DNA of 64,000 bases from a virus (lineage: Duplodnaviria; Caudoviricetes), in IMG/VR virus record IMGVR_UViG_3300020037_006332, positions 1-64,000 of that record; one strand, written 5' to 3'. A program made the translations under genes and the position numbers. How positions within the stretch are numbered: the first letter of the stretch is position 1; every line of letters starts with the position of its first letter. Shown here in pieces: positions 507 through 24,845 of the stretch. The notes under the pieces are model-generated. The model ran no database searches, was not told the DNA's origin, and saw nothing but the letters and a program-made list of their open reading frames with translations.

Positions 507-2273
507 CTAAAACGCGAGTTTCTTGTCGAATGCGGTGGGTTTGATGGCAAGGCTGTCCATGCTGGCGGTTTCCCACGGGAGTTTGCCAATGGCGATTTTC
601 TCGCCGTCCCGGTAGGGCCTGTCGATGCCGTGGGTGTACTCCACTTCAAGGTGGTAGCGGCGGGTTTTCTTGTCGGCGGTATAGGTCGAATTGGCCACGA
701 TTTCGCTTTCGCCAATCAGCCGGATATGCCGGGCATTGGAAAAAATGTTCGTGGGCGGCGGGAGCTGGGGCCACTCGCCGTATCGCTCGGCGATGATTTT
801 GATGGTGCGGGCCTGGGTTTTGGGGGCCAGCACGACAAACCGGCTCGTGCGGGTCTGCTGGGATTCCTGGCTGGTCGGTGGGTTCCCGGAAACCGGGACT
901 TGCACGGTTTGATGCCGGGTCATAATCGACGTCGATAGCTCATAGAATTCGTAGCGGGTAGCGTTGGCGTCGAAATTGATGGTTACGTCTTTGGCGGCTT
1001 CGGCCTTGCCTTCGGAAATCGTGACTTTCGTGTCTTCGCCCTTGGTGCTCTTTTCTTCCTTGGTGGGCTTGTCGGTGACCTTGGCCATCCAGTGGTTTTG
1101 ATTGCACGGGCTTTGTAGGTAGCTGACGAATAGGCCCGTCATAGTGGCGGTTCCGTAGGCCGGCATCACGGGGTTGGTGTCCGGCTTGTAGTCGGGGACG
1201 CCGGTTTTCATGCTGGCCAGCCGCTCGGTGGGGAAGCCAAGGGCGGCCACGTTGTCGTTTTTGCCTTCCAGGGAGCCCCGGATCGTGCGGAGCCGCATGT
1301 CGATTTTGTTTTCGTCCAGGTAGCTGATAATGCTGGCCTGCTGGACGGTGTTGACCGACTTGCCTTTCTGGAGCCCTAGGCGTTGTTCTGAGACTAGGGC
1401 GGCGACGCGGATCAGCTCCAGCTTGGGCGTGTACTTGTCGCCCCAGACGGTAATCTGGAATTCCTCAAACACGCTGCTGCCGTCTTCGGAAATGGCGGCG
1501 TGTTGGCCGGTCCACTTGATAGCCGGGTCCGGTGGGCTGGCCACGGTTTCCTGGTCGGTGACGGTGTACTCCAGGGTCAGCCCGTCGGCGGTCGTGGCGA
1601 TATCAATGCTTTGGCGTTTGAAACCGGACTGGAGCGGCGGGACCACCCACCCGCGAAATGACTGGGGGTTAAGAATCGGATTCGTGACGCGGAGCCGGCC
1701 CGTGATCGTGCGGGTAGTTAGCCAGAATTCGTCGATCATGTCCCGGACGCTCCAGCGATTATTCAGCACGCCGGACTGGTTGGCGTTGGAGCTGGGGCAA
1801 TCCAGGCAATGTAGCTCGATGGTGAATTCGACCACCATGAGCGAGCTACCGATGATATTCGAGACGGTCACGCTGGTGGGCTTGGGGCCGTTGTTCAGGT
1901 CCGCCAGCCAAGTCCCGTCGGAAATGATTTTCGGGTGCGGTGAGGCTTGGGCCGGATAGAACGTGCCGGGGTCGTGGGCGGCCTTCACGTGCAGCAGAAT
2001 GCTCTCGCCGACGGTCATCTTAAACTCGCGGCGGGGCTCGGACAGTGCTTGGCGGATGGCGATTTCGGTTTCGGCCACGCCTAGCTGATTGATGGGCGTG
2101 ACGTCCTGGTTCGTGATCGGGCTAACGTAGCCGTGGACGTAGCCCCGGACGCTGATGGTGAACTTGTGAAACAGCAGGTCGGTGCGGGAATCGTCATACT
2201 CGCAAGTCTGGTCGAACTTGCGAGTCAGCACGTTCCGCATGGTGACCCCGTTATAGATCAGCGTGGTGGCCAT
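507..2273 (-). CDS. Putative tail tip/hub protein (588 aa)
   Basis: Long ORF translationally coupled (TAATG) to the tape-measure-like gene; function inferred from position only. Confidence 0.5.
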   Translation of the reverse strand: MATTLIYNGVTMRNVLTRKFDQTCEYDDSRTDLLFHKFTISVRGYVHGYVSPITNQDVTPINQLGVAETEIAIRQALSEPRREFKMTVGESILLHVKAAHDPGTFYPAQASPHPKIISDGTWLADLNNGPKPTSVTVSNIIGSSLMVVEFTIELHCLDCPSSNANQSGVLNNRWSVRDMIDEFWLTTRTITGRLRVTNPILNPQSFRGWVVPPLQSGFKRQSIDIATTADGLTLEYTVTDQETVASPPDPAIKWTGQHAAISEDGSSVFEEFQITVWGDKYTPKLELIRVAALVSEQRLGLQKGKSVNTVQQASIISYLDENKIDMRLRTIRGSLEGKNDNVAALGFPTERLASMKTGVPDYKPDTNPVMPAYGTATMTGLFVSYLQSPCNQNHWMAKVTDKPTKEEKSTKGEDTKVTISEGKAEAAKDVTINFDANATRYEFYELSTSIMTRHQTVQVPVSGNPPTSQESQQTRTSRFVVLAPKTQARTIKIIAERYGEWPQLPPPTNIFSNARHIRLIGESEIVANSTYTADKKTRRYHLEVEYTHGIDRPYRDGEKIAIGKLPWETASMDSLAIKPTAFDKKLAF

Positions 2274-3331
2274 TAGCCTACAGTCTCCCCGGGCTTGCGG
2301 CGGTTTCGGCCGCCGCCGTTACCCTTACGGCGTTCGGTCTGGCGTTCGTTGAAGTCTCGGCGGTAGTCCCGCGATAGGTCGTTAATCCAGGTCTGGGCCA
2401 TATTGGCCTGGGGGTTTTTCTTGGTTTCGCCCCAAATTAGTTCGTAAAGGGTGGTGACAATCCCGAAGCCCTTCACGAGCACGGTCATAATGTTGATCGC
2501 GTAGCGGCCCAGCGTGTTCCCTAGGTTGCTCATCATGTTTTTGATGGGCTGGATTTCGTCGCGGAACGTGTCCACGGCTCCAACTAGGGCGGTGGCCGAT
2601 TCGCTGGTGGCTCCGGCGGCGGAGTAGTTCCGGCGAACTTGCTTCAGGTTGCTCATGGCGTAGGCTTGGCCAATCGAGCCATTATAGAGCGATAGCGATT
2701 TGTTAGACTCGTAGAGCCCGTCCGCCAGCTTCTTGCCGGCCATCGCCACGCCTACAAATGCCCCGATAACTCCAGCCGGGCCGCTGATGCCGGACTTTAA
2801 GAGGTCCATCGCATTGCCAAGCTGGGGAATCGCATCCTTCAGCCGCTCGGCTTGCTCGGTGTTGTCGGCGGCCTTGTCTTGAGCCTGCTGGGGAGTGATC
2901 TTGCCGCCTAGCAGGTCGCCAAAGGTCTGCCCGTTGTTGGCGGCGGCGGTGGTGACCGGCGGGGGCGGTCCCGGGGGAGCCGGCTGGGACTGGGGCCCCA
3001 TAAACGCCTCGCGTAGGCCCCCCATTGCCCGCTGGGCGAACGTCCGGCGGGGTTTGAGTGGCGTAGGGGGCGGAGCCGGAGCGGGGCCCTGAGCGGACGC
3101 CACGCCTTCAGGCTGGTTAAATCCGGGCTTGGTCCAGTCGGTGATACGGGTGCTGGGGCCGGCTTGGTGCTTACTGAAGCCGCTGGCGGCGGACTTCACT
3201 AGGCTGCCTAGGTCATCGGTTTTGCTGGCGGCGGAGCCGGCGGCCCGGGCGGCCGAACGGGCGGCGACGGCTCGCCCCACTCCGCTGGCGAGTAGCCGCC
3301 CTAACACTCCAAGCAAGACGGGTGCCGGCAT
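2273..3331 (-). CDS. Tape-measure-like protein, unusually short (352 aa)
   Basis: Ala/Gly-rich and helical-looking; directly follows the G/GT chaperone pair. Confidence 0.6.
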   Translation of the reverse strand: MPAPVLLGVLGRLLASGVGRAVAARSAARAAGSAASKTDDLGSLVKSAASGFSKHQAGPSTRITDWTKPGFNQPEGVASAQGPAPAPPPTPLKPRRTFAQRAMGGLREAFMGPQSQPAPPGPPPPVTTAAANNGQTFGDLLGGKITPQQAQDKAADNTEQAERLKDAIPQLGNAMDLLKSGISGPAGVIGAFVGVAMAGKKLADGLYESNKSLSLYNGSIGQAYAMSNLKQVRRNYSAAGATSESATALVGAVDTFRDEIQPIKNMMSNLGNTLGRYAINIMTVLVKGFGIVTTLYELIWGETKKNPQANMAQTWINDLSRDYRRDFNERQTERRKGNGGGRNRRKPGETVG

Positions 3332-3333
3332 GG

Positions 3334-3615
3334 TTATAGCTCACTCTGCTGGCTGGCTTGGTAGCGGTTAATTTCGGCGGCGGCCTGTTCCTCGCTGTCG
3401 GCGAGTGCCTTGATTAGCTCGGGGTTGACGCTGCCGCTCATGGCTTGGGTAATGCCAGATAGCACGGCTGCGGTGCGTCGGGCCTCGGTGCGTTTCATGT
3501 TGAGCCAGAGTCCTACCCGGCATTCGTAGGCTTCGGCTCCGCCAGCGTTCAGCTCGGCCAAGCTGCCGGCTCCGTAGCATCCGGCTAGGTCGGCTGCCCA
3601 CTGCCATTTTTTTTT
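3334..3615 (-). CDS. Tail assembly chaperone GT extension (-1 frame)
   Basis: The -1 frame reads ...QLKKKWQWAADLAG...QSEL* with no good independent start; entered at the A9 slippery run. Confidence 0.7.
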   Translation of the reverse strand, partial: KKKWQWAADLAGCYGAGSLAELNAGGAEAYECRVGLWLNMKRTEARRTAAVLSGITQAMSGSVNPELIKALADSEEQAAAEINRYQASQQSEL

Positions 3616-3932
3616 AAGTTGTCGACGTACAAAACAAAGTCGTTTAGGACGCCAAGGGTTTCCATTTCGGTGAGCCCCTCGGGCGTGTCTTCGGTCCAGG
3701 CCGGGATGCCGAAAATCTCGCGGGTCGCCTGGACGGAAATCTCGCTGGCTTCGGCCTCCAGCTCGGGCTCGCCGCACACCATATCGGCTAGGTGCCGGTC
3801 GACGTCAAACTTGGGATGGGCGGCCATCTTGCGGATGACGGTCACGGGATCGGCGGAGCGTTCGCGGGTGCCGTCGAAATACTTGAAAATCCGCTGGACT
3901 TTCGGGGCTCGATTGCGGCTGAATAATCGCAT
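3585..3932 (-). CDS. Tail assembly chaperone G
   Basis: 115 aa ORF between tail tube and tape measure, ending in a slippery sequence. Confidence 0.75.
   Translation of the reverse strand: MRLFSRNRAPKVQRIFKYFDGTRERSADPVTVIRKMAAHPKFDVDRHLADMVCGEPELEAEASEISVQATREIFGIPAWTEDTPEGLTEMETLGVLNDFVLYVDNLKKNGSGQPT
3607..3617 (-). other. Programmed -1 ribosomal frameshift site (TTA AAA AAA AAT)
   Basis: A AAA AAA heptamer at the 3' end of chaperone G, in the canonical position between tail tube and tape measure. Confidence 0.8.
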
Positions 3933-3945
3933 GGGGGTTAATTTC

Positions 3946-4431
3946 CTAGCTCGCGGTCGTGTTCCAGAGCGTGCCGCCGACGTTCCAGGCGGTGCCTTCC
4001 AGGCGGAGCGTGGAGAACTTCGTGCCGGCGTTCAGCTCGATGGGGTCGCGGAAAATGACGTAAGGGTAGTTGCGGATTAGGTTGGTGTTGGAAACCAGCA
4101 GGCGGAAATACTTATTTCCGGCCAGCATGAGCGTGCCGGCGGTCGGGATGGTGCCGGCGGTGCCGCCCTTGTGCCGGCTGAGTAGTTTCTGGGCGATGGT
4201 GGCGTCCCACTTGGTTAATTCCAGGGTGATCTGGGCCGTCTCGCCCATATACTGGAGGTCGCACCCCGGGCCGGCTTCGCCGCCGTAGTCATCGCATTTG
4301 ACTTCCGCGAAATAGCCGTCGTGGCGGAGGATGACTCCATCCCGGGTATAGCCAAGGTCTTCCAGGGCGTCGGCGGAGCCGGTGCCGACTTTGATCGTCG
4401 ATAGCCCGGCTACTACGATTGCGATGGCCAT
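3946..4431 (-). CDS. Major tail (tube) protein
   Basis: 161 aa; LGYTRDGV and ITLELTKWD tube-like pattern; position. Confidence 0.7.
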   Translation of the reverse strand: MAIAIVVAGLSTIKVGTGSADALEDLGYTRDGVILRHDGYFAEVKCDDYGGEAGPGCDLQYMGETAQITLELTKWDATIAQKLLSRHKGGTAGTIPTAGTLMLAGNKYFRLLVSNTNLIRNYPYVIFRDPIELNAGTKFSTLRLEGTAWNVGGTLWNTTAS

Positions 4432-4919
4432 TATTGCACTCGATATGGGTAGTAGTTGCGGGTCCGGTCACGGATCAGATTGAGCTGCGTGACGGCGGCC
4501 ACGCTGGGGCGGGTTAATTTCGGGGTGCCGGCGTCAATCACTTTGGTGATATTGAAGACGTTTTCCCCCTTCCTCAATCGCTCCAGGTAGAGGTCATGCA
4601 GGTCCATCTGGGCTTTGTAGTCGTCCACTGAGTAGGTTGGTTTGATCGCAAATAGGTAGGCCATTGCGATTTCGCAAACCATATGCTTCAGGTGGGCGGC
4701 TGAATTGCCCGTTAGGGCGGCTAGGTCGCCGGGGTCATACCGGCCAGCCTGGAGTAGTGCGGCGTCGATAGCTCCGCTCGCACTCTCCAAAGCGGCCAGT
4801 ACCTTGTCGTCCGTGGCCAAAGCCCCGGCCGACACGGCGGTGCCGTTCTCACTTACAAGCTGGCCGATGGTCAGCTCGCTTTTGCGTAGCAGTAGATCGG
4901 CCGGGGTAGCGTAAGCCAC
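4431..4919 (-). CDS. Head-tail adaptor, Mu gp36/DUF1320-like
   Basis: MAYATPADL...AALESASGAIDAAL..GRY..L...VCEIA pattern; follows the capsid gene. Confidence 0.8.
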   Translation of the reverse strand: MAYATPADLLLRKSELTIGQLVSENGTAVSAGALATDDKVLAALESASGAIDAALLQAGRYDPGDLAALTGNSAAHLKHMVCEIAMAYLFAIKPTYSVDDYKAQMDLHDLYLERLRKGENVFNITKVIDAGTPKLTRPSVAAVTQLNLIRDRTRNYYPYRVQ

Positions 4920-4935
4920 GGGCTAACCCTCCGAT

Positions 4936-5985
4936 TTACATGGCACCCGTGAACAAATAGCCGCTAATGCCGGCGGTGAGTTTCGGGGTGCAGTTGTCCA
5001 CGACGCGGACCACGGTTTTGCGGTTGTCGGCGTCGTACTTGGTTTCGACCGTCATGTCGTCGCCTTGGTAGACGAAAAGCGTGCAGGTCGAGAAGCTCGG
5101 GCCGCCGTACTTGCCCACCAGTGAGCCCGGGCGGGCCGTGATAAAGGGCGTCGAATCCCCCAGCACAAAGCTGCTGGCGAACGTGGCTCCCTTTTTGTTG
5201 GTGGTCTTTACGGCGTCTTCGACCACGATTTCCACGCCTGCGTAGGTGCTGGGCAGGCCGTAGAGCACGTCGCGGAATTCGCCTTCGCTCGTGTCGGCCC
5301 GGATGAAACGCAAGGCGTCCGGGCTGCTCTTGAGGTAGTCCACCATTTCCTGGCTTTCGGCCATTGCCTTCGCCAGATTCGGGTTGACTACCAGCTTGAG
5401 GTCACGGGCTTTGACCACGCCGCCGGTGCTCTTGAGAATCTGAGTAATGGCGGCGTCAATCGACTTCTTGATATAGAGGTTGGCCGTGGTGGCCGCACTC
5501 CACTGGCCGCCGGCGAGGGCGGTCGTGGTGCTCGTGTGAGCACTGGCCCAGTTGCCGCTGGTGGTCAATTCGCTGACCACAAGCTGCGTGCGGCTGGTCA
5601 TGGCCTGCTGGGCCTTGATTTCCGTGTGCTGGCCAATGATATCCCACGCGGCTTGGTCGGTGGCCAGCTTGCCCAGCGAGACGGGGTACACGTATCGCTT
5701 GCAGGTGAAGGGCAGGAATTCAAACGATTCCGCCCCCTCGTTGCCGTGCGGGGCATCCGCACCATCCGGCCACTGGTGGTCGGTGAGCGTGGTTGAGAGG
5801 ATTCGCATTCGTTCCTCGACCGTCATTTTCGTGTAGTAGCCCACCATTTCCGGGCAGGGCACCAGCGAAATGTAGCGGTTGAGGCTGAAGTCCCGGGGGT
5901 TACGCGAGAAGTCCACCAGCAGACGCTTGGACCCCTCCAGACTCGGGATAAACGTGTTGTACTGTCCGGGGAAAATAGCGGCCAT
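4936..5985 (-). CDS. Major capsid protein
   Basis: 349 aa, downstream of protease/scaffold and decoration gene; strong RBS. Confidence 0.8.
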   Translation of the reverse strand: MAAIFPGQYNTFIPSLEGSKRLLVDFSRNPRDFSLNRYISLVPCPEMVGYYTKMTVEERMRILSTTLTDHQWPDGADAPHGNEGAESFEFLPFTCKRYVYPVSLGKLATDQAAWDIIGQHTEIKAQQAMTSRTQLVVSELTTSGNWASAHTSTTTALAGGQWSAATTANLYIKKSIDAAITQILKSTGGVVKARDLKLVVNPNLAKAMAESQEMVDYLKSSPDALRFIRADTSEGEFRDVLYGLPSTYAGVEIVVEDAVKTTNKKGATFASSFVLGDSTPFITARPGSLVGKYGGPSFSTCTLFVYQGDDMTVETKYDADNRKTVVRVVDNCTPKLTAGISGYLFTGAM

Positions 5986-11443: not shown

Positions 11444-11471
11444 ACTATAGCGAGCGGTTTTGGCTTGTCAA
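11444..11471 (-). promoter_or_regulatory. Sigma70-like promoter with TAYAGCGAGCG operator
   Basis: TTGACA-N16-TATAGT with CGCTCGC adjoining the -10. Confidence 0.7.
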
Positions 11472-14400
11472 GCGTACCGCCAGCGGGGCCGGTAGTAGCG
11501 TTCCACGCTGCCGCTGGCGGCGTTGCGGGCTTGGAGGTCTTTTAGGTGCGGGAAGTCTTTGAGGATTTCCTGGGGGATGGTGCCGCCCTGGGCGATGTGG
11601 TCCTTCATGGCGGCCACGTAGTCGCGGTTCGCCTGCTGGACGTCGTAGTCCCCTTTCTTGCCGGCTTTCTGTAGGTGGTGCCACTGGGCCCTGGTGAATC
11701 CCCATTCGTTGGCTGGTCGGCCGCCGCCGGACTTGGGTGGCTCGGGTTTCTTGGGCGGTTCCGGGTCTTTGGGCTCGGGGGTCTTCGCTTCGGGCTGGTT
11801 GGGCTTGCTTTCTTCGGCGGCCTGCTGGGCTTTGCCGATTAGGCCATGCTTCTGCCAAAACGCATAGCACTTGGGGAATTTCTCTTTGGCTAGTTCCTCG
11901 TTCTCGAAAATAAAACGGGCATATTCCGCAAACCCCTCTGAGGCGTTTTTGTTGGCGTATTCGGAAAGTCGGTAGCCATGCTGGCGGCTATATTTGATTT
12001 CATCCTGGTACGCGACTTGCCACTGCGTATCGCTGGATAATTTCGATTCGCTGTAGCGGAATTTAGCATCTAGGATATGGGCTTTCCGCTCCCACGCATC
12101 GCGGTCAAAGTCGATGGCGTGGCCCAGCTCGTGGGCCAGAATCGACGCGGGCCCCATGTCTCCCATGTCCTTTTCGAGTGGCACCACTAGCTCGCCCTTT
12201 TGGCCTGCGAAATAGCCGCCAATGCGGCTGTTTTGCGTGTTGATACGCTGGCGGCTGGCGGCTGCGTAGGCCCGGGTCACTGACAGCGTATCGCTGTGGA
12301 CTTCGATTTTTTGGACGGATTTGCTAATCCGCTCGGCGGATTTCGGGGAGAACGTATTGAGGACGGCCCGGACGGATGCGTTAAAGCCTTGCATTTGCTC
12401 CGGCTTGGCTTTGAAAGCCACCATTTTGCCGGACTGATTGGCCATTTTCTTGACGTCGCCGGGGTTAATTTTGGCGAATGCGGCGGCCACGGTTTTGCGG
12501 AATGGATTATCTGCCGGGTCTTCTTCTTCCGGTTCTGGTTCGGGCTCGGGTGCTTTGGGCGGCTCGGGCTTCTCGGGTGGGCCATCGAATAGCCCCTTCT
12601 GCCCCTTGCTGGGCTTTACCCGGACGTCTTCGGTAGTCGCTCCGCCGCCCTCGCCAAACTTCCCGTCGGCCGCTCGGGGGTGTTTACTTTCGTCCCATTC
12701 GTAGCGGGCCACGTCGCCCCGGCGGGCAAACGGCACGGCGTCCAGTTCCTCGGGGGTGGCGTCGTGCTCGCCCCAGTCTTCCCAGCCGCCGCCCTCGCCT
12801 TCCGGGGCCATCCCGGATTTATTGGCGTTGTACAAGATTTCGGCGGCTTGGCGGATTAGCTTGGGGTCGGTTTTGCTAGGCTTTTCGGGCGGGTTGCGGA
12901 GTAAATCCCAAAGCCGGCCGGCTAGGTCTTCATCGTCGGCATTGGCCCCGCCTTCGTAGCCCCGGCCGATGCCCAGCTCGGGAATGCTGCTGGCCAGCCG
13001 GCGGGCGATATCGTCCAGGCCGGGGACGCTGGCGGCGTCGCCGCCGGTGTTCTCCAGGTGGGCTAGTTGCTTTGGGGTTAGGCCGGTTTGCTTGCGGGCT
13101 TCGGCGATAGCGTCCAGGGTGGGCTGGTAGGCTTCGGCCTTTTCCTGGTAAACGTGGTCCAGGGTTTTGGCTAATTCTTCCGGGTCGACGCCCCAGTCTT
13201 CGGCCTCACGGGCGACTAGCTGGTTCGATAGGTCATCCACCTTTTGGCCACGCATCCGCTCACGCGGGGCCTGGGCGTTGGCGGGCTGCTGGTCGGTGTG
13301 TTTGACGTTGCCGATCTTGGCATTGTTGCGGGCTAGGTATTTCTTGGCCCGGGCGGTCATTTCGTCCTGAATCGCCTTGCGGACGGTGGGGTCGCTGGCG
13401 ATGCCCGGGGCGAGATAGACGTCGGCGTCAATCTTCCCAGTCTGGCCGGTGGCCCGTTTCATTTCAAACGCCCCGGCGACCTTGCTGTCGTGGATCACGG
13501 TGACGGTGACCGTGCCGGTGGCCTTGTCGGTCTTAATGCCCACCTGAAGGGCCTTGCGGACTTGGCTGGCGGTGCCGGCCGTCGGCTTCGGTTTCTCGGG
13601 GGCGGGCTGGGCCTGCCGGGTTTTAGATTCCGCGATAGCGGCCCTGGCTTCGGCCAGTAGGTCCTGCTTCCGCTTGATATCGGCGTCCAGCTTGCTGGGT
13701 TTCTTGCCGGCCTTTCCTTTGGGCTCGGGCTGCTTCTTGTTGATGCTGCTGACGTTCTGGCCGGTTAAATTCTTGGGTCCGGCGTGGATATGGCCGTTGT
13801 CGTCAATCAGCACGGGGGTGCCGCCGTCGCCCTCGTGGGCCCCGATGGTGACCCAGCGGGCGTAACGTAGGATTTTCCCGGGGCGGCGGTTGCGTTCGGT
13901 GTCTGCCTGACGCATCGAAGCCAGAGAAGCCCGGTTCTCGGCTAGGACATTTTCCAGGGCGGCAATCTGTTTCTTGAGCTGCTTCTGCTCTTTTGCGTTC
14001 AGGGTCGGGAGCATGGCCGCCCCACGCTCTAGGGCTTCCTCTAGCTGGCTGTTTTGCTTTTCAAGGTGGGCAATATCTTTGGCAAAGCCGGTTGGCTCGG
14101 CCTTCTCGGCCGGGGCAAAGTCAGCCCGGACGTCTTCCGGGAGTTCAATTCCGTCGTGCTTCGCGTCGCTGATAGCCCCGACGTGCTGGCGATAAGTCGG
14201 TGTGTCAATCTCGTGGCTGCCAATCATCTTATCGACGTCCAGGCTAGAGATATCCAGCCACCCTTGCTTGCCTCCCACAAAGATTTGCAGGCCGTTGCCG
14301 TGGGCCCGGATATGGGCCGGATCGGCGAGCGGCGTGGCTCGCATTTGCGTGGTGTGGTAAACAGTTTCGCCGGATTTGATTTTCTCGGCGATGGCCTTGG

Positions 14401-16354
14401 CCGTAGTCTCGGCCCACTGCTTTTTAGTCCACTTCGTAAGGTCCGGGCGGCTGCCGCCGCTGGAGCCCCCGCCGCTGCCAAACTTCCCATCGGCGTCACG
14501 TGGGTGCTTGTCTTCATCCCATAGGCCCCGCTGGTGGTCGCCGTAGCGGTCTACGTCGCCGCCCCGGGCGTTCCGGCTGGGTTCGGGGATGTTCGACGGG
14601 AATAGCGGGCTGGGGCTGCCGTCATCCGGGTCGTCGTCATCGCCGCCCCCGGGAAACCACCCGTCCCCGTCTTCGGCTTCGGCTTCGCCGCCGGGGTTAA
14701 TTTCGGGGGTGTCTTGGCCCACGGTTTCCTTGAGTTTGGCGAATGCCTTATGGGCGTCGCTGGAGTGGAATTCGCTTACCAGCTTGGCCCGAAGCTGGTT
14801 GGCGGTGGGGTTATTGCTGCCGCTATTGGGGCTCATGCCGGCGGCTTTGGTTAAATCTCCCTGGGGAGCCGTGGCGGCGTTGGGGTCGTTCGGGTCGCCG
14901 CCCTGGCCTTGCATGGCGGCCATTTGCTGCTGGCCGGCGGCCGTGGCCTGGGGGTTTTGCAGGGTGGGCTCGTCGGGTTCGGGGATGGCGGCCCCGATGG
15001 CGTCCAGGACGTCGGACTCTTTCAGGCGGGCCCCCATGTTCCAAGCCTTTTCCATGCCGGCCAGCTTGGCTTCGACGTCGGGTAGCTGGGTCTGAATCAC
15101 AAACCGCATATCGACGTTATGGGCACTGGCGTCGTTATAGATTTTGAGCGGCTTGAGTAGGTCGCGGGTAATCGTTTCTTCCAGATTCGTGGCGTCAAAT
15201 TTGACGATATCGAGCATGGTCTGCAAATGGAGGTCGGCCACGCCGGAGCCCATGCCGGTGGCTTCGGCTTCGCTGGTGAGCACTTGGCCCAAAATGTAGC
15301 GTTTGATGCGGTGGCCAAAGTAGCCGTTTAGCAGGTTCTGGAATGCCTCGATGCCGCCCGGGTTGGGCTCGATGTGCTCGACGCCGTAGGCCATGCTGGT
15401 ATCCCCCAGCGGCTTAGGAAACAGGACGATGGTTTTGCGGCCGTTGCGGTTCTCGGCGGCGTTCTTGACGTCCTGGTAGGCGGAGTCGTTGCCTTCGGGG
15501 TAGTACCAGATTTCAAAGCCTAGGGCGGCTCGCTCCAGAAACTCCAGAAACAGCCCCAGCATTTCCTGCTTCTGAAACCACTCCCAGTAAATCCGGGAGC
15601 GGATACCGACGCCGTGGATGCTGCCGGCGTCCAGCGGGGACTCGTAGGCGGCGTCTTCGATCAGATATTTGTGGATGGCCACCATCGACCGCTCGTGGGG
15701 GGCTAAAAACGTGGCTAGCCCGGCCTCGGTCGGGACCACGACGCGGCCGTCGATCAGGTCGTGGGGCTTGAATTGGGAGCCCACGCGGATGCCCACTTCG
15801 TCGCGGGGGTGTTCGTCGCTGCCGTCATCCTGCCGGAAAACCAGCTTGTCGCCGTTAATGGGGAGCCAATCGTCGACGATGATATCGCGGCCGTTGGGGG
15901 TAATTTTCCAGCCGAAACGGTGCTGGATGGCGTAACGGCCGTACCAAATAGCCTCGGACAGCGTGTAGCGGTACTTGGTAAAATTGCGAGTGGCCCGGAG
16001 GATGTTAGTCATCCGCTCTTGCAGGGCCTTGTGGTGGGGCAGGTCGGGCCCGTCGACTTCGATATGCCAGTCCAGCAGGGCTACGGATCGCATCCGCTGC
16101 TCCAGGCACTCCATCACGCCGATGTCGTTCCTCATGTAGCGGGCGTTATCAAGCGAATGCTTGAGGGCCTCGTCCGGGCTGCGGAACGTCTTGGCGATGG
16201 TCGAAACGATGCCCTGGAACGTGTGGACCGTCGGCATGACCGGGCGGCCCATATTGGGCGGGGCGGCCTTAAACTTCCGGGCGGGATCGCGGCGGTTGGC
16301 GTTGTCGAATTCGTTGCCCTTAGTGGGCCCGCTGCCGGGAGTTTGCTGGATCAT
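11468..16354 (-). CDS. Portal protein (Mu gp29/DUF935-like N-terminal ~500 aa) fused to ~1100 aa of extra modules including a zincin domain
   Basis: N-terminal portal-like motifs (LSEAIWYG, IKRYILGQVLTSE, ADLH..T..DIVKFDA..LEETIT); C-terminal HELGH...LSEYA..EGFAEY; start re-assigned to MIQQ at 16354. Confidence 0.8.
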   Translation of the reverse strand: MIQQTPGSGPTKGNEFDNANRRDPARKFKAAPPNMGRPVMPTVHTFQGIVSTIAKTFRSPDEALKHSLDNARYMRNDIGVMECLEQRMRSVALLDWHIEVDGPDLPHHKALQERMTNILRATRNFTKYRYTLSEAIWYGRYAIQHRFGWKITPNGRDIIVDDWLPINGDKLVFRQDDGSDEHPRDEVGIRVGSQFKPHDLIDGRVVVPTEAGLATFLAPHERSMVAIHKYLIEDAAYESPLDAGSIHGVGIRSRIYWEWFQKQEMLGLFLEFLERAALGFEIWYYPEGNDSAYQDVKNAAENRNGRKTIVLFPKPLGDTSMAYGVEHIEPNPGGIEAFQNLLNGYFGHRIKRYILGQVLTSEAEATGMGSGVADLHLQTMLDIVKFDATNLEETITRDLLKPLKIYNDASAHNVDMRFVIQTQLPDVEAKLAGMEKAWNMGARLKESDVLDAIGAAIPEPDEPTLQNPQATAAGQQQMAAMQGQGGDPNDPNAATAPQGDLTKAAGMSPNSGSNNPTANQLRAKLVSEFHSSDAHKAFAKLKETVGQDTPEINPGGEAEAEDGDGWFPGGGDDDDPDDGSPSPLFPSNIPEPSRNARGGDVDRYGDHQRGLWDEDKHPRDADGKFGSGGGSSGGSRPDLTKWTKKQWAETTAKAIAEKIKSGETVYHTTQMRATPLADPAHIRAHGNGLQIFVGGKQGWLDISSLDVDKMIGSHEIDTPTYRQHVGAISDAKHDGIELPEDVRADFAPAEKAEPTGFAKDIAHLEKQNSQLEEALERGAAMLPTLNAKEQKQLKKQIAALENVLAENRASLASMRQADTERNRRPGKILRYARWVTIGAHEGDGGTPVLIDDNGHIHAGPKNLTGQNVSSINKKQPEPKGKAGKKPSKLDADIKRKQDLLAEARAAIAESKTRQAQPAPEKPKPTAGTASQVRKALQVGIKTDKATGTVTVTVIHDSKVAGAFEMKRATGQTGKIDADVYLAPGIASDPTVRKAIQDEMTARAKKYLARNNAKIGNVKHTDQQPANAQAPRERMRGQKVDDLSNQLVAREAEDWGVDPEELAKTLDHVYQEKAEAYQPTLDAIAEARKQTGLTPKQLAHLENTGGDAASVPGLDDIARRLASSIPELGIGRGYEGGANADDEDLAGRLWDLLRNPPEKPSKTDPKLIRQAAEILYNANKSGMAPEGEGGGWEDWGEHDATPEELDAVPFARRGDVARYEWDESKHPRAADGKFGEGGGATTEDVRVKPSKGQKGLFDGPPEKPEPPKAPEPEPEPEEEDPADNPFRKTVAAAFAKINPGDVKKMANQSGKMVAFKAKPEQMQGFNASVRAVLNTFSPKSAERISKSVQKIEVHSDTLSVTRAYAAASRQRINTQNSRIGGYFAGQKGELVVPLEKDMGDMGPASILAHELGHAIDFDRDAWERKAHILDAKFRYSESKLSSDTQWQVAYQDEIKYSRQHGYRLSEYANKNASEGFAEYARFIFENEELAKEKFPKCYAFWQKHGLIGKAQQAAEESKPNQPEAKTPEPKDPEPPKKPEPPKSGGGRPANEWGFTRAQWHHLQKAGKKGDYDVQQANRDYVAAMKDHIAQGGTIPQEILKDFPHLKDLQARNAASGSVERYYRPRWRYA

Positions 16355-16393
16355 ATTCGCATCCTTGCGGTGGGCTGCTAAAATCGGGCCATC

Positions 16394-16693
16394 ATGGCAC
16401 GGAATGCCCACCAATGTCTGGCGTGTCTGCGGCTCTTAGATGAGACAGCAATTTCGCTGACTGGTGGGGCACGCAAGCATATCTGTTTTGCGTGTTGGAA
16501 AACGCTCCCGAAGTTTAGGCGGATACAGTTGCAGTTGTTTTGCCGAACGGTGCCAGACGGGGGCGTCGGCATCCGGGAATTCCTGCTCCGGCTTGTGGAA
16601 GCGATGGAGCGGGCGGCGGAATACGACGAAACCGATGAGCCCGATGACGATATCGAGCCCGGCGGCCCCGGCTGGAGCCCTCAGTGTAACTAA
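16394..16693 (+). CDS. Possible Zn-finger protein (CxxC...CxxC, acidic tail)
   Basis: Plus-strand ORF filling the gap between portal and HNH; stop overlaps the HNH stop. Confidence 0.4.
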   Translation: MARNAHQCLACLRLLDETAISLTGGARKHICFACWKTLPKFRRIQLQLFCRTVPDGGVGIREFLLRLVEAMERAAEYDETDEPDDDIEPGGPGWSPQCN

Positions 16694-20032: not shown

Positions 20033-20060
20033 AGTATAGCGAGCGAATGCGGCTGGTCAA
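20033..20060 (-). promoter_or_regulatory. Sigma70-like promoter with operator
   Basis: TTGACC-N16-TATACT with CGCTCGC. Confidence 0.65.
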
Positions 20061-22438
20061 GCTCGGCGGGGGCCCTGGAATTGCACGCTCTCGCGGGGCT
20101 TCCAGGGGCGTTGGACGGGCTTCGGGGCGGAGCCGGTGCCCATCTTGTCGCTATAGATCGCGTAGCCCATCGCGTCCAGGGCGTGGTCGTTAAAGTCCAC
20201 GGGACGGTTTTGGGGGTTCCGCTGGCGGCGAGCGGCGTCGCCGGTGCTGGCCCCGGTGGGCTCGGCCCAGTGATAGCCGCGAATCTCGGAAATCAGATTC
20301 TTGCACTTGCTGAGAATGTAGAGCCGGGGGCGGCCGTTGTCGCCCACCAGCATAAGGCTCCGCAGTTCCGAAATCCGGCTATTGACGGGGTACTGGCCGA
20401 AACCTTTATTAGCCCCGGTGCACTTGAGGCCCAGCCGGGTAAATTCGACCATTTGCTGGGGGTCGGCCGTGTCGCAATAGGTTGGCCCGTAGGCGGGGTG
20501 ATCGTATTTCCAATCCCGCTGGTTAATTTTGGCCAAGTGGTAGGCGTTGGGCTTTTGGGTTTCGTAGTGTTCGTCGTAAACGTAGTAGGTGCCGTCTTTG
20601 TCACGGGCCACCCAAACCACGGCAAACGGCGAATTGTAGCCCCAGTCGATGCCCCGGATGTGGAGCCATCCACTGGGGATGCGGCCGGCGTCAAGCTGCT
20701 CGGCCAGCTTCCGCATGGGCTCGGGGAGGGTGGTGCTGGCGGGGTCCAGGACGTGGATGCCCCGGCGGAATTCCTTGAATACCTGTCCCCGGAACGTGGC
20801 GAAATGCCCGGTTTCGCGGGTCATCCGCATATCTTCGTCGGTGGCCTTCAGTCGGCTTTGTACATAGTCCTGGTCGATGTACTGATTGAGGCTGGTGTTT
20901 AGGTGGTAGAATTCCCAGCCGTCGGGGACGTCTTCGTATTTGTCGGGCCACTCGGGGGACACGATTTCGACGGGGGTAAAATCGGCCCAGCCCGGGCTAC
21001 CGTAGTCGCGGCATCGCCACTGGACTTCCTCCACAATCTCGAACGGCACTTCCTCGTTAAACCAGTAGCCGCCGATTGATCGGCCTTGCATATGCTGGCG
21101 GCCCTGGTTGTAGCTCTTGAATTCGATAACCCACCCGATTTTGCTGGGGTTCTTGGGGTGCTTCAGCAGCACGGCGGCGGGCCATGATCGCTGCTTATCG
21201 AACCACGAAATATGGGCAATCTTTTCGGGCGGGATAAACGTGGAGAGTTTTTCCTGCCAGCAAATGCTGCAAACCATGTCGAACGATTGCCCGATAATCC
21301 AGAATGGGCAGTGTTCTCGATAGGGCGGGGTATCGAGCACGTAGCGGGCCGTCTTGTAGGCGGCGGCCACGGTCTTGCCGCTGTTGTGGTGGAAAACCCC
21401 GGCCAGCTCGTAGTTGTGCCACCCGTGGACGGTGAAATCATAGAAGTCCTGGACGCCAATCGGCTCGATCTTGACCACGTGGGCGGTATTGGCTATCGTT
21501 GCCTCCAATGGGTACGTGGAATCGCATAGACTGGCCGGTCGAGAAAATGCGTACTTGGTACGAAGTGGACGGCCTTTCGTGTGCTGAAATTGGGGCCAAG
21601 CTCCAGCAGTCTGGGCGGACTGTGTGGAAAGTTTGCAAGCGGCATGGGTTTCGGATGCGTCCTGTAGGGCCGCCCCGTGGCGAGAAAAACCCGGCCTGGA
21701 AGGGTGGCCGCACGGTCGATAAGGCTGGTTATGTGCTAACGCTTTGCCCGTCGCATCCGCAAGCCAATTCGGGCGGCTATGTCCGGGAGCATCGGCTAAT
21801 CGCCGAACGGCTTCTAGGGCGATATCTGCTCCCGTCGGAAGTGGTTCACCATGTAAACGATGACCCTGCGGATAATCGGCCGGAAAACCTACTGGTGTAT
21901 GCCACAAACGGCTTGCACTTGGCGGACACGCTGCAAGGCAAGTGCCCAAACTGGTCGGACGATGGGCGGGTCCGGATCGCGGCCGGAGTTGCGAAACGTG
22001 CATCCAATCGCCGGAAGCGGTCAAAACCCGGTGGTGCCCAGTCGCCTTAAATGCCTGCCCGTTGCTCATGGTTACGCGATAGAGCATGTCCCGGCCCTTG
22101 CGGAATGGGGCGTTGGCTAGGGCCGGCACGGCTTGCTGGCCATCCCACGCGACCACGTGCCACGGCTCCCGGATTTGGTCCACGCGGCGGTGGTGATTCG
22201 CCACGGGGTCAAAAACAAGCGTATCGCCGGCCACGCATCCGTTGCCCCCTAGGCAAATGGCGAAGTTGGCCTTGCTGTTGACGAATGCGGTTTGTTCGTC
22301 AAAGTTCTCGGGGTTGTCCGGGCGGGGAGTGAACATTTCCAGCGGGGTAAGCCGCTGGTTATATTCCCGGACTAGGCGGCCGTGGCCTGCCTTAATGAGG
22401 GCTTGAATCTGCTGGGGGCTGAATACTTTGGCTGGCAT
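20057..22438 (-). CDS. terL: Terminase large subunit containing an intein
   Basis: Walker A GGNG|SGKT split by the intein; Walker B WFNEE; nuclease GIDWG and NDHALDA; start MPAKVF at 22438. Confidence 0.9.
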   Translation of the reverse strand: MPAKVFSPQQIQALIKAGHGRLVREYNQRLTPLEMFTPRPDNPENFDEQTAFVNSKANFAICLGGNGCVAGDTLVFDPVANHHRRVDQIREPWHVVAWDGQQAVPALANAPFRKGRDMLYRVTMSNGQAFKATGHHRVLTASGDWMHVSQLRPRSGPAHRPTSLGTCLAACPPSASRLWHTPVGFPADYPQGHRLHGEPLPTGADIALEAVRRLADAPGHSRPNWLADATGKALAHNQPYRPCGHPSRPGFSRHGAALQDASETHAACKLSTQSAQTAGAWPQFQHTKGRPLRTKYAFSRPASLCDSTYPLEATIANTAHVVKIEPIGVQDFYDFTVHGWHNYELAGVFHHNSGKTVAAAYKTARYVLDTPPYREHCPFWIIGQSFDMVCSICWQEKLSTFIPPEKIAHISWFDKQRSWPAAVLLKHPKNPSKIGWVIEFKSYNQGRQHMQGRSIGGYWFNEEVPFEIVEEVQWRCRDYGSPGWADFTPVEIVSPEWPDKYEDVPDGWEFYHLNTSLNQYIDQDYVQSRLKATDEDMRMTRETGHFATFRGQVFKEFRRGIHVLDPASTTLPEPMRKLAEQLDAGRIPSGWLHIRGIDWGYNSPFAVVWVARDKDGTYYVYDEHYETQKPNAYHLAKINQRDWKYDHPAYGPTYCDTADPQQMVEFTRLGLKCTGANKGFGQYPVNSRISELRSLMLVGDNGRPRLYILSKCKNLISEIRGYHWAEPTGASTGDAARRQRNPQNRPVDFNDHALDAMGYAIYSDKMGTGSAPKPVQRPWKPRESVQFQGPRRA
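21383..22237 (-). mobile_element. Intein (285 aa) in the TerL P-loop
   Basis: Begins CVAGDTLV, block B TGHH, block F YDFTV, ends HHN followed by Ser; excision restores GGNGSGKT. Confidence 0.9.
21508..22050 (+). CDS. HNH endonuclease encoded antisense inside the intein
   Basis: HTH-like N-terminus, GEKNPAWKGG, GYVREHRLIAE...EVVHHVNDDPADNRPENL. Confidence 0.85.
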   Translation: MGTWNRIDWPVEKMRTWYEVDGLSCAEIGAKLQQSGRTVWKVCKRHGFRMRPVGPPRGEKNPAWKGGRTVDKAGYVLTLCPSHPQANSGGYVREHRLIAERLLGRYLLPSEVVHHVNDDPADNRPENLLVYATNGLHLADTLQGKCPNWSDDGRVRIAAGVAKRASNRRKRSKPGGAQSP

Positions 22439-22784
22439 CCATGCCTCTGCCGAACGGGATGTAAAGGGTGTAATAGCCGGCCTTACGGAGTGCGTCCCGC
22501 ATGGCAATCGCGGCTGGCCCGTTGAAACTGTGCACCACAAACGTCCGCACGTCGGGCTTGTTCATTAGAATCCAGCGGACCACTTCACTGCCGCTATTTT
22601 CTTCGGCGGTGTCTTGATAGTGCTGGCCGCCTAGGTCGTGGTCCAGGTGTACCTCGAACCATGTTTCCGGGCGGCGGAGCTGGTCAATACACTCGCGGGC
22701 CGTGTTGACGATGATGGCGTCGGGTTGCATCCGACGGAAAATCCGGCAGCGGGTGGGGTCATCGTCTAGGAACAAAATGGCCAT
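22392..22784 (-). CDS. Cyclic-phosphate-processing receiver-domain protein
   Basis: ILFLDDD, HLDHDLG, SGSEVVRW, VHSFN motifs. Confidence 0.75.
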   Translation of the reverse strand: MAILFLDDDPTRCRIFRRMQPDAIIVNTARECIDQLRRPETWFEVHLDHDLGGQHYQDTAEENSGSEVVRWILMNKPDVRTFVVHSFNGPAAIAMRDALRKAGYYTLYIPFGRGMDASQSIQPPADSSPH

Positions 22785-23181
22785 GTGTGCGGGCTTCCTT
22801 GCGGATAAATCCAAACTCCATTTCAAACATCGGGGACGCTTGGTGGCTCTTGAATGGTCGCCGCGAGACGTGTGAAAGCTGGTATTCCAGGACCGTCGCC
22901 ACTAATCGCATCCGGGTCGTTAGCTGCTCGTGGTCATCGACGTGGGCCATGTAAATGGCGGTGATCGTGTGCACGTAGGCCAGCACGGTTTCGCGGCTAC
23001 TGAGGCCCAGCGGCCGGGGGCCAACCGACATATCCCACGTGGCTTTTGTAAAAACTCGATTGATACTTTTCCAGGTCCGCCAGTCTTCCCGGAGTTTGGC
23101 CAATAGCTCCCCGTGCTTATGCTCGGCGGCGGCTTGGTGCCCCCAGTCGGTGAACATCGTCACGGGGTCGATTTCGATCAT
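22759..23181 (-). CDS. Small protein, N-tag family
   Basis: MIEIDPVTMFTDW. Confidence 0.55.
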   Translation of the reverse strand: MIEIDPVTMFTDWGHQAAAEHKHGELLAKLREDWRTWKSINRVFTKATWDMSVGPRPLGLSSRETVLAYVHTITAIYMAHVDDHEQLTTRMRLVATVLEYQLSHVSRRPFKSHQASPMFEMEFGFIRKEARTHGHFVPRR

Positions 23182-23507: not shown

Positions 23508-24552
23508 GGCTGGCCTCGGCGATGATCTTCTTGACCTTGGCAGGTTTCATCCGAACATCACGGGCGATAGCCACGACGTCGTTGCCCTGCTGGAATAGCT
23601 CCAGGACACGCTGCTCCGGGGTGAGCGGTTCAGCGGGTTCCTCGTATTCTACAGCGAGCGAAGCAATTTCCAACTCCATTTCCGGCATCGCGGGTCGGGT
23701 CGGGAGCGGGGCGTCCACGACGTCCTGGCCAAACTGCTTGGCGGCGAAGTCCTGGCCGGCTTCGTTCAGTAGCTCCTGGGCATTATTAGCAATATCATCA
23801 ATTCCCATAAGTTCCGCTAATACTGCGGCCAGCTCGGCCCAGCGGGCGTCTGCCAGCCACGGGCTCCCCTCGTCTTCGCGGGCTCCGTATTGGGCGGATT
23901 TGATGCGGGCGATTTGCTCGATGGGCACCCGCTGGCGGATCAGGGTTTCCAGGTCGTCAATGCGGGTGGGGATTTCGGGGGCCGGGACGGGCTCGCCGCT
24001 GTCGGGGTCGACTTCCGGGGTTTCGGGGCTGAGATAGCCCATCATTTCCAGGTCGTAGTGATAGCGGGCTTCGATGGCGGCTGGGGTTAATTCTGACCCC
24101 GGCTTGTCAATCTCGCGTTGGACTCGCTCGATATCGGGGAGCGGGTTGTCGCCGGGCTGAAACCATCGCCATTCATTGGCGATAATGCGAAGCGGCACCT
24201 TTTCGGCGTGCATTTCGGTGGGCGTTTTGCGTTCGATACGCGGGGGCGGGTCCAGCAGGCATTGCCGGCGGGCCTCGTCGCGGGCGTGCCAGAATGAGAC
24301 GGGGGGCTCGGCTTCGCCGGTGGCGTTAAACTCGGCGTAGGCTTGGGCCAGCTTTCGCATCGCTTGGCTGGCGATGGGCAGGGCGAATTGATCGTAGCCC
24401 CGGAGCCACGCTTCCAGGGGCCGCCAGTAGCGGGCGTCGGGCGGGACGCTGGTGCCGTCATCGTTAAACAGCTCTAGGGCTTCGTAGGCTTCGTGCTCGG
24501 CGGCGGATAGGTCGCGGATTTCGGTAACGGTAATGCGTTCGGCGGCATCCAT
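23476..24552 (-). CDS. Hypothetical acidic protein with C-terminal HTH-like segment
   Basis: Long ORF; C-terminal VLELFQQGNDVVAIARDVRMKPAKVKKII. Confidence 0.6.
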   Translation of the reverse strand: MDAAERITVTEIRDLSAAEHEAYEALELFNDDGTSVPPDARYWRPLEAWLRGYDQFALPIASQAMRKLAQAYAEFNATGEAEPPVSFWHARDEARRQCLLDPPPRIERKTPTEMHAEKVPLRIIANEWRWFQPGDNPLPDIERVQREIDKPGSELTPAAIEARYHYDLEMMGYLSPETPEVDPDSGEPVPAPEIPTRIDDLETLIRQRVPIEQIARIKSAQYGAREDEGSPWLADARWAELAAVLAELMGIDDIANNAQELLNEAGQDFAAKQFGQDVVDAPLPTRPAMPEMELEIASLAVEYEEPAEPLTPEQRVLELFQQGNDVVAIARDVRMKPAKVKKIIAEASREQQTADAGN

Positions 24553-24845
24553 GTATTTCGCTCCAGGACTCGAAAGTAGGCTTTCCATAATTGGCGGCGG
24601 TGCAAGTCTACCAGATGGTTACAAAGGGAGTGCACCGCTCGCAAGTTAGTTAGATCGTTGGTGCCGCCGTCCTGCAAGGCGACGATATGGTCGACGGTCA
24701 CGAAATGCTCGGGGCGTCGGTCGTGCAGGTGCAGGTGCCGGCCGCAAATTTCGCATTTGCCTAGCTGGCGGACCACCAGTTTAAGTAGTTTGCGGCGGGC
24801 GGCTCGACGCATGGCCCGGACGTAACGGCTTCGGTTTGTGGCCAT
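24474..24845 (-). CDS. Small HNH endonuclease near terminase
   Basis: CEICG...TVDHIVALQDGGTNDLTNLRAVHSLCN. Confidence 0.8.
   Translation of the reverse strand: MATNRSRYVRAMRRAARRKLLKLVVRQLGKCEICGRHLHLHDRRPEHFVTVDHIVALQDGGTNDLTNLRAVHSLCNHLVDLHRRQLWKAYFRVLERNTWMPPNALPLPKSATYPPPSTKPTKP

Follow-up and report, generated by a model that had tools for sequence, protein, structure and literature searches.

A putative composite homing element in a phage terminase gene: an intein with an HNH endonuclease gene on the opposite strand

The large terminase (TerL) gene of an uncultured phage (Duplodnaviria; Caudoviricetes) is interrupted by an intein, and the opposite strand of the intein encodes a complete endonuclease of the HNH type. 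The gene resides in the IMG/VR virus record IMGVR_UViG_3300020037_006332. The stretch analyzed, hereafter called the window, corresponds to the first 64 kb (positions 1 to 64,000) of this single 72,560-bp contig. G+C content is ~60%, long open reading frames (ORFs) lie nearly all on the minus strand, and the DNA is taken as a phage genome because genes for a Mu-type portal and a large terminase are present. The insert is read as a composite homing element, made by a spliced mini-intein and a separately expressed antisense HNH that would supply homing. A probability of about 0.8 is assigned to this reading, which draws on sequence comparisons. The features discussed are listed below; domain abbreviations are HTH, helix-turn-helix; AF2, AlphaFold2; pLDDT, predicted local distance difference test.

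20057-22540, minus strand: TerL ORF including the intein, 827 amino acids (aa), with matches to Terminase_6N, Terminase_6C and phrog_2.
22238-22249, minus strand: first half of the Walker A motif (GGNG), last four codons of the N-extein, read from the sequence.
21371-21382, minus strand: second half of the Walker A motif (SGKT), first four codons of the C-extein; Ser+1 is the predicted splice nucleophile.
21383-22237, minus strand: class-1 intein, 285 aa, from C1 to HHN (TerL residues 102-386), with Intein_splicing match and HINT fold.
21974-22237, minus strand: intein N-lobe, residues 1-88, blocks A and B (TGHH at 22031-22042); beta strands, pLDDT 86-98.
21488-21970, minus strand: in-frame linker of the intein, residues ~90-250, a stop-free shadow of the HNH gene; no secondary structure, pLDDT 46-54.
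21383-21487, minus strand: intein C-lobe, residues 251-285, blocks F and G (DFYDFTV...VFHHN); pLDDT 93-98.
21508-22050, plus strand: gene for an HTH and HNH_3 endonuclease, antisense to the intein, 180 aa plus stop; PF13392 and phrog_10730 matches, AF2 model, I-HmuI match.
~21538-21642, plus strand: HTH of the antisense HNH; small HTH domains found at Z 6-7 in a structure search.
~21679-21939, plus strand: core of the antisense HNH; best solved match I-HmuI, at a middling Z of 6.8.
21471-21499, plus strand: sigma-70-like promoter candidate (TTGACC, 17 nucleotides (nt), TATCGT), a consensus match only; it ends 8 nt before the HNH ATG.

The intein runs from CVAGDTLV through TGHH (residues 66-69) and DFYDFTV to VFHHN/SGKT, and splits the Walker A motif as GGNG/SGKT (here and below, the slash marks the junction). 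The hallmarks of class-1 inteins are present, namely block A Cys, block B His, block F Asp, block G His-Asn, +1 Ser and the HINT fold. The Pfam Intein_splicing profile matches the insert but leaves a long middle unmatched, and a Pfam profile search of the intein frame found no in-frame endonuclease domain there. In the AF2 model the two lobes superpose on the Mtu RecA and Ssp DnaB mini-inteins (Foldseek E 2e-6, root-mean-square deviation (rmsd) 1.4-1.5 A, ~90 residues). C1, the block B His (H69), the block F Asp (D267), the terminal H284-N285 pair and Tyr276 are invariant across 42 diverse relatives, Tyr276 being the sole invariant column that is not a splicing catalytic residue; every relative has S, T or C at +1. 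The TerL intein is presumed to splice, because its catalytic residues are intact and the Walker A motif that it interrupts is essential.

The plus-strand ORF spans 21499-22050, and the ATG at 21508 was set by homology. The product matches HNH_3 (PF13392; 35.4 bits, Pfam cut-off 24.8) and several PHROG families of HNH endonucleases, the best being phrog_10730 (E 5e-26). In the AF2 model (pLDDT 90.7), a three-helix HTH at the N-terminus precedes a beta-beta-alpha core. I-HmuI was the top solved structure in the VIA wide search, with a middling score (Z 6.8, rmsd 3.4 A, 79 residues), and a Foldseek search of the model against the PDB gave no match at E <= 0.001. The catalytic His and the metal-binding Asn and His residues (H114, H115, N123, N134, H137) are invariant in 51 sequences; CxxC zinc pairs are missing from the antisense HNH.

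The first-pass annotation, made from the letters alone, had described a 285-aa intein with intact splicing motifs splitting Walker A, a central ~160 aa without endonuclease motifs that looked like a shadow frame, a complete HTH and HNH ORF at 21508-22050, and two strands stop-free for more than 540 nt. All this holds: sequence, Pfam and HINT model agree on the intein, the middle lacks an in-frame domain and is modelled at pLDDT ~50, the profile matches and model given above identify the nuclease, and both strands measure 552 nt of open frame. The coordinates likewise bear out that HNH wobble positions fall on second codon positions of the intein. First positions of HNH codons face first positions of intein codons, and third positions of HNH codons face second positions of intein codons. 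The HNH tail was said to overlap block B, and its final codons (22030-22047) indeed cover TGHH (22031-22042).

Relatives were collected by searching the HNH against viral, metagenome and genome contig collections, and three terminase homologs were added. The search returned 107 loci (95 unique sequences), in which intein N and/or C blocks lie opposite the HNH, nearly all in a single stop-free ORF. Every close full-length HNH relative found sits antisense within an intein, and the HNH ORF is wholly inside the intein in 51 of the 51 loci in which both ends could be placed. The loci are not assembly duplicates of one sequence, most pairs sharing less than 60% nucleotide identity. The protein family is larger: 978 HNH homologs are reachable by k-mer search, hundreds of them at 50-73% identity, and 260 clusters match the HNH at E <= 1e-30 in a library clustered at 50% identity.

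The codon register of the two genes is identical in all 95 unique relatives. No stop was found in the 18,180 codons of the intein frame of these sequences, and the other two antisense frames hold 807 and 518. In more distant homologs outside inteins, the corresponding antisense frame has a stop density of 3.3-3.9 per 100 codons, and in free-standing relatives stops are as many in the shared-register frame as in another antisense frame. Synonymous resampling, with the HNH protein fixed and each sequence keeping its own codon usage, expects 426 stops; the summed log10 P of finding none is -236. The HNH had been proposed as the constrained sequence, and substitutions agree: in pairs at 60-75% nucleotide identity the fractions of mismatched sites are 0.28, 0.24 and 0.55 for HNH codon positions 1, 2 and 3, and the excess at third positions denotes purifying selection on the HNH protein. 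These counts indicate that both frames are held open by selection, which in the loop of the intein frame seems restricted to the avoidance of stops.

The Walker A motif is the insertion site in every case, at G..G/[STC]GK[ST] in most loci and after GK in a few; in the DNA on either side, conservation is limited to codon positions 1 and 2. The exteins include Terminase_6, Terminase_3, clamp-loader-like AAA+ proteins, PF00004 AAA ATPases, AAA_25 proteins, Strawberry-notch-like (Sbno) helicases carrying AAA_34 and Helicase_C_4, and an SNF2-related protein; by these assignments, the hosts cover at least six families of P-loop nucleoside triphosphatases (NTPases). The nearest HNH relative belongs to a different extein cluster in 13 of 50 loci. 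Distances among HNH proteins and among splicing lobes are correlated (Mantel r = 0.62, a value reached in 0 of 999 permutations). Since the shared codon register is not intrinsically favoured, a single origin followed by spread is preferred to repeated invasions, and the data point to a composite that arose once and then entered a wide range of P-loop NTPase genes in one piece.

An empty allele has been identified in a sibling phage, L203 (71-kb contig). Its TerL, protein P0136, was called from the region equivalent to the TerL of the window, and its C-extein is 94% identical. The motif CLGGNGSGKT is uninterrupted at the exact insertion point, intein and HNH being both absent. The codons flanking the insertion differ in the two alleles, GGA/AGC in the occupied one (22238-22240 and 21380-21382) and GGC/TCC in the empty one (~4198-4203), and encode Gly/Ser in both; the difference may bear on the immunity of the occupied allele to the nuclease.

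Some loci have a peculiar organization. A free-standing full-length HTH and HNH relative of 223 aa resides in a bacterial metagenome-assembled genome (MAG), at L137:2459-3130 (+), where it adjoins a tyrosine recombinase. It lies outside any intein, has stops in the corresponding antisense frame, and could be an ancestor-like form or an escaped copy. L084 and L131, which are identical, carry a full-length HNH at 2486-2950 (+) inside a minus-strand ORF (1527-5018) open in the antisense frame; this ORF, in a Mycobacterium-labelled MAG, shows only a marginal match to an intein C-block (E 0.038), and the HNH may sit in a divergent type of intein. On an ENA contig, the gene calls place the closest HNH (P0001, 73% identity) immediately upstream of a terminase of 807 aa that carries an intein, the two genes being divergent. 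Gene calling may have cut this terminase short at the HNH, and a second intein is possible. At L106:3-3500 (-) a terminase-like gene hosts two inteins, of which the one in the P-loop carries the antisense HNH. An origin of the antisense gene by inversion of the in-frame HNH_3 of the downstream L106 intein was considered and found unsupported, as the two have only the HNH motif in common (E 0.007).

Candidate signals for separate expression of the HNH, all of them sequence matches, recur in the family. Of 85 unique regions upstream of the HNH, 19 contain promoter-like sites, as do 2 of 255 control windows taken within the ORF, and shuffled sequences give 3.3; Shine-Dalgarno-like motifs were found in 43 of 85 upstream regions, against 34 of 255 control windows. 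Many relatives feature clear -35/-10 and GGAGG-type motifs upstream of the HNH. In several others, such as L067 and L097, the promoter-like site and the ATG are arranged as in the window.

The 855-bp insert would thus be a two-strand selfish element. The terL strand would encode what is effectively a mini-intein, two HINT lobes joined by a disordered loop of ~160 aa, predicted to excise post-translationally and to rejoin GGNG to SGKT, restoring the terminase ATPase. Within the loop, the opposite strand would provide a gene for an HTH and HNH endonuclease of the free-standing type (His-Me finger, I-HmuI-like), transcribed from its own promoter inside the intein DNA, in this phage possibly as a leaderless mRNA. 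The enzyme would cut or nick Walker-A-coding DNA that lacks the intein, in a relative infecting the same cell, and repair by recombination would copy intein and HNH gene together. Selection would act on the protein sequence of the HNH; in the intein frame, only the splicing lobes and freedom from stops would be selected. A composite of intein and antisense HNH had been put forward in the first-pass annotation, and gains support from the comparative evidence, which includes two-frame openness, constraint on the HNH, invariant splicing residues, co-varying distances, upstream signals and the empty allele.

Several results weigh against this reading. Considered alone, the double openness of the window is weakly significant, the probability of no stop being 0.04-0.10 by synonymous resampling; codon shuffling of the same sequence gives 0.005. 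The statistical weight for dual openness comes from the family, not from the single locus. No HNH relative covering at least 80% of the protein was found by tblastn among 50,697 INPHARED records of cultured phages, and the family could be linked to no isolate or experimental study. A sliding-window comparison of the spliced terL of the window with the empty allele revealed no clear change of identity around the insertion site, as would mark a co-conversion tract. The -10 hexamer of the window (TATCGT) is weak, and the sigma-70 consensus may not be that of the host. No Shine-Dalgarno sequence precedes the HNH ATG; with a promoter candidate abutting the ATG, this suggests that the HNH mRNA of the window is leaderless or nearly so. 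Finally, the target of the HNH could be either an empty P-loop site or a mini-intein allele lacking the HNH.

The latter target would suit an HNH that is a secondary parasite, nested in the dispensable loop of the intein as in a safe harbour and spreading only itself, for example into HNH-less mini-inteins. Full-length free-standing relatives do exist outside inteins, as the L137 gene beside an integrase, and published models trace such layouts to inteins that were invaded by free-standing endonucleases (Dassa 2009, PMC2677866; Gosselin 2025, 10.1101/2025.01.02.630785). This explanation is nevertheless held unlikely. A single register is found in all 95 unique sequences, with no intrinsic shortage of stops in the free-standing relatives, HNH and splicing-domain distances co-vary, the composite is present in many extein families, and the closest terL relative lacks intein and HNH together, rather than carrying a mini-intein.

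A role in the phage life cycle, the HNH serving as a terminase-associated enzyme for cos cleavage and packaging and being inside terL by happenstance, would fit the notion that phage HNH endonucleases commonly adjoin terminase genes (PMC3592412). It is made highly improbable by the finding of the same HNH family in inteins of clamp-loader-like, AAA+, AAA_25 and Sbno-like helicase genes, by the embedding of an HNH devoid of CxxC zinc pairs antisense to an intein, by the presence of a separate canonical PF01844 HNH at 24474-24845, and by the lack of an antisense HNH at the terL of the sibling phage L203. Slighter still are the chances of a fortuitous shadow ORF or of a decaying relic, be it an HNH pseudogene or a terL fractured with a split intein. 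Antisense open runs reach 227 codons in other genes of the phage, at ~60% G+C, and the 0.04-0.10 probability obtained for the window alone goes in the same direction; yet the HNH matches curated families and is 50-73% identical to hundreds of proteins, its third-position substitution excess is the pattern of a coding frame, and the lack of stops in 18,180 intein-frame codons is an openness that a split gene would not need. Chance was rejected on the stop counts and the synonymous resampling of the family. The fractured-gene variant was rejected, as TerL is a single ORF (20057-22540) and the intein frame is stop-free in the 95 unique relatives.

The composite homing element may have a broader meaning, for which the odds are set even. 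It would be a generalist of single origin that homes to P-loop sites, in which intein and antisense nuclease travel as a unit and the nuclease is expressed independently of a late essential host gene; it would also be the largest known class of non-canonical inteins, overlooked by gene callers. Targeting of Walker-A-coding DNA (GGn GGn nnn GGn / WSn GGn AAr WCn) would have allowed jumps among at least six P-loop NTPase families, which would comprise two terminase types, clamp loaders, AAA+ proteins, RecA/DnaB-like ATPases and Sbno/SNF2 helicases. Antisense placement and a promoter of its own, sometimes leaderless, would free the timing of the nuclease from that of the host gene.

Inteins with an endonuclease in another frame are known. 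Antisense LAGLIDADG genes have been assigned to inteins of Synechocystis DnaX and of a Chloroflexus SpoVR-like protein (Gorbalenya 1998 and Gogarten 2002, as cited in bioRxiv 10.1101/2025.01.02.630785). In actinobacteriophages, antisense LAGLIDADG, antisense VSR-like and frame-3 endonuclease VII-like nucleases have been described in inteins, including some in terminases (bioRxiv 10.1101/2025.01.02.630785), and a +2-frame LAGLIDADG in a cyanobacterial dnaX intein is under frame-dependent selection of the same pattern as described here (bioRxiv 10.64898/2026.09.14.751524). No paper reporting an antisense HNH in an intein was found in the limited library of literature searched. The question left by the first-pass annotation, whether the arrangement had been published, can therefore be answered: the antisense layout had been, for LAGLIDADG and VSR-like enzymes, and the HNH version had not in the literature covered. 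What is new is the HNH version of the antisense-endonuclease intein; the architecture itself has already been described for other nucleases.

The system shares with the non-canonical inteins a contiguous and presumably splicing intein, an endonuclease encoded by a separate ORF that overlaps the region between the blocks, an in-frame middle without a fold, constraint on the endonuclease frame, and terminase large subunits among the hosts. It differs from the published ones in the nuclease, an HTH and HNH_3 enzyme (I-HmuI-like) absent from the types reported in those papers; in family size (95 unique loci; 260 clusters at 50% identity); and in distribution, as it is restricted to the Walker A motif of P-loop NTPases from many families, and its sources are uncultured phages and MAGs, not actinobacteriophages. 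Canonical bifunctional inteins, with in-frame LAGLIDADG or HNH domains (Dalgaard et al. 1997, as cited in PMC8966425), similarly combine a HINT domain and a homing nuclease in one mobile insert that hits a conserved active-site motif. In contrast, the nuclease described here is outside the intein polypeptide, on the other strand, with its own start and putative expression signals.

Where a gene is fractured and its intein split (Dassa et al. 2009, PMC2677866), an endonuclease gene of the free-standing type likewise lies between the N and C splicing parts, and the origin proposed for that layout, invasion of an intein by an endonuclease gene, may be shared by the system described here. The host gene here is unbroken, however, and the intein frame is open across the endonuclease in all relatives. 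In the ShiLan-type insertions of phage methylase genes (PMC11855218) an HNH is similarly hidden in an alternative frame of an open host gene. These insertions have no splicing domain and their HNH is on the same strand, whereas the terL insert includes an intact intein and an antisense HNH. I-HmuI (PDB 1u3e), an HNH_3 enzyme of phage group I introns and the best match to the HNH core, is likewise made by nuclease and DNA-binding modules. Unlike I-HmuI, the DNA-binding module of the antisense HNH is an N-terminal three-helix HTH, and the carrier is an intein, not an intron.

The start of TerL is likely the ATG at 22438 (MPAKVF...). Directly upstream, and overlapping the 5' end of terL, a gene at 22392-22826 (-) encodes a cREC_REC (cyclic-phosphate processing receiver) domain (E 3.5e-14); it occupies the spot where a small terminase might be expected, and the same gene is found in the sibling phage L203. 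A second HNH gene, canonical (PF01844, CxxC-type motifs), resides at 24474-24845 (-), upstream of the packaging genes, and is more likely than the intein-embedded HNH to be the terminase-associated or cos-cleavage enzyme of the phage. The ORF at 11468-16414 (-) measures 1648 aa and features a Mu-type portal domain at the N-terminus and a long C-terminal extension. A weak Peptidase_M90-like match in the latter, below the Pfam cut-off, is noted, and the product may be a portal fused to cargo modules.

The interest of the element rests on family size, on the uniform codon register and on the spread across P-loop genes, not on the architecture itself. If the reading as a composite homing element is correct, dual-strand coding over ~540 nt would be stably kept by two kinds of selection, one on protein sequence, the other on the absence of stops and on the flanking splicing lobes. 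Gene callers would annotate one of the two genes, terminase or HNH, and miss the other, and inteins and nucleases of metagenomic phages would be mis-called or split. Mini-intein scaffolds that tolerate disordered loops of at least 160 aa, and site-specific HNH enzymes aimed at the sequence coding for Walker A, might become useful tools. The family would also provide a large natural data set both for the model of intein evolution in which splicing comes first and the endonuclease invades later, and for the switching of exteins via shared nucleotide-binding motifs.

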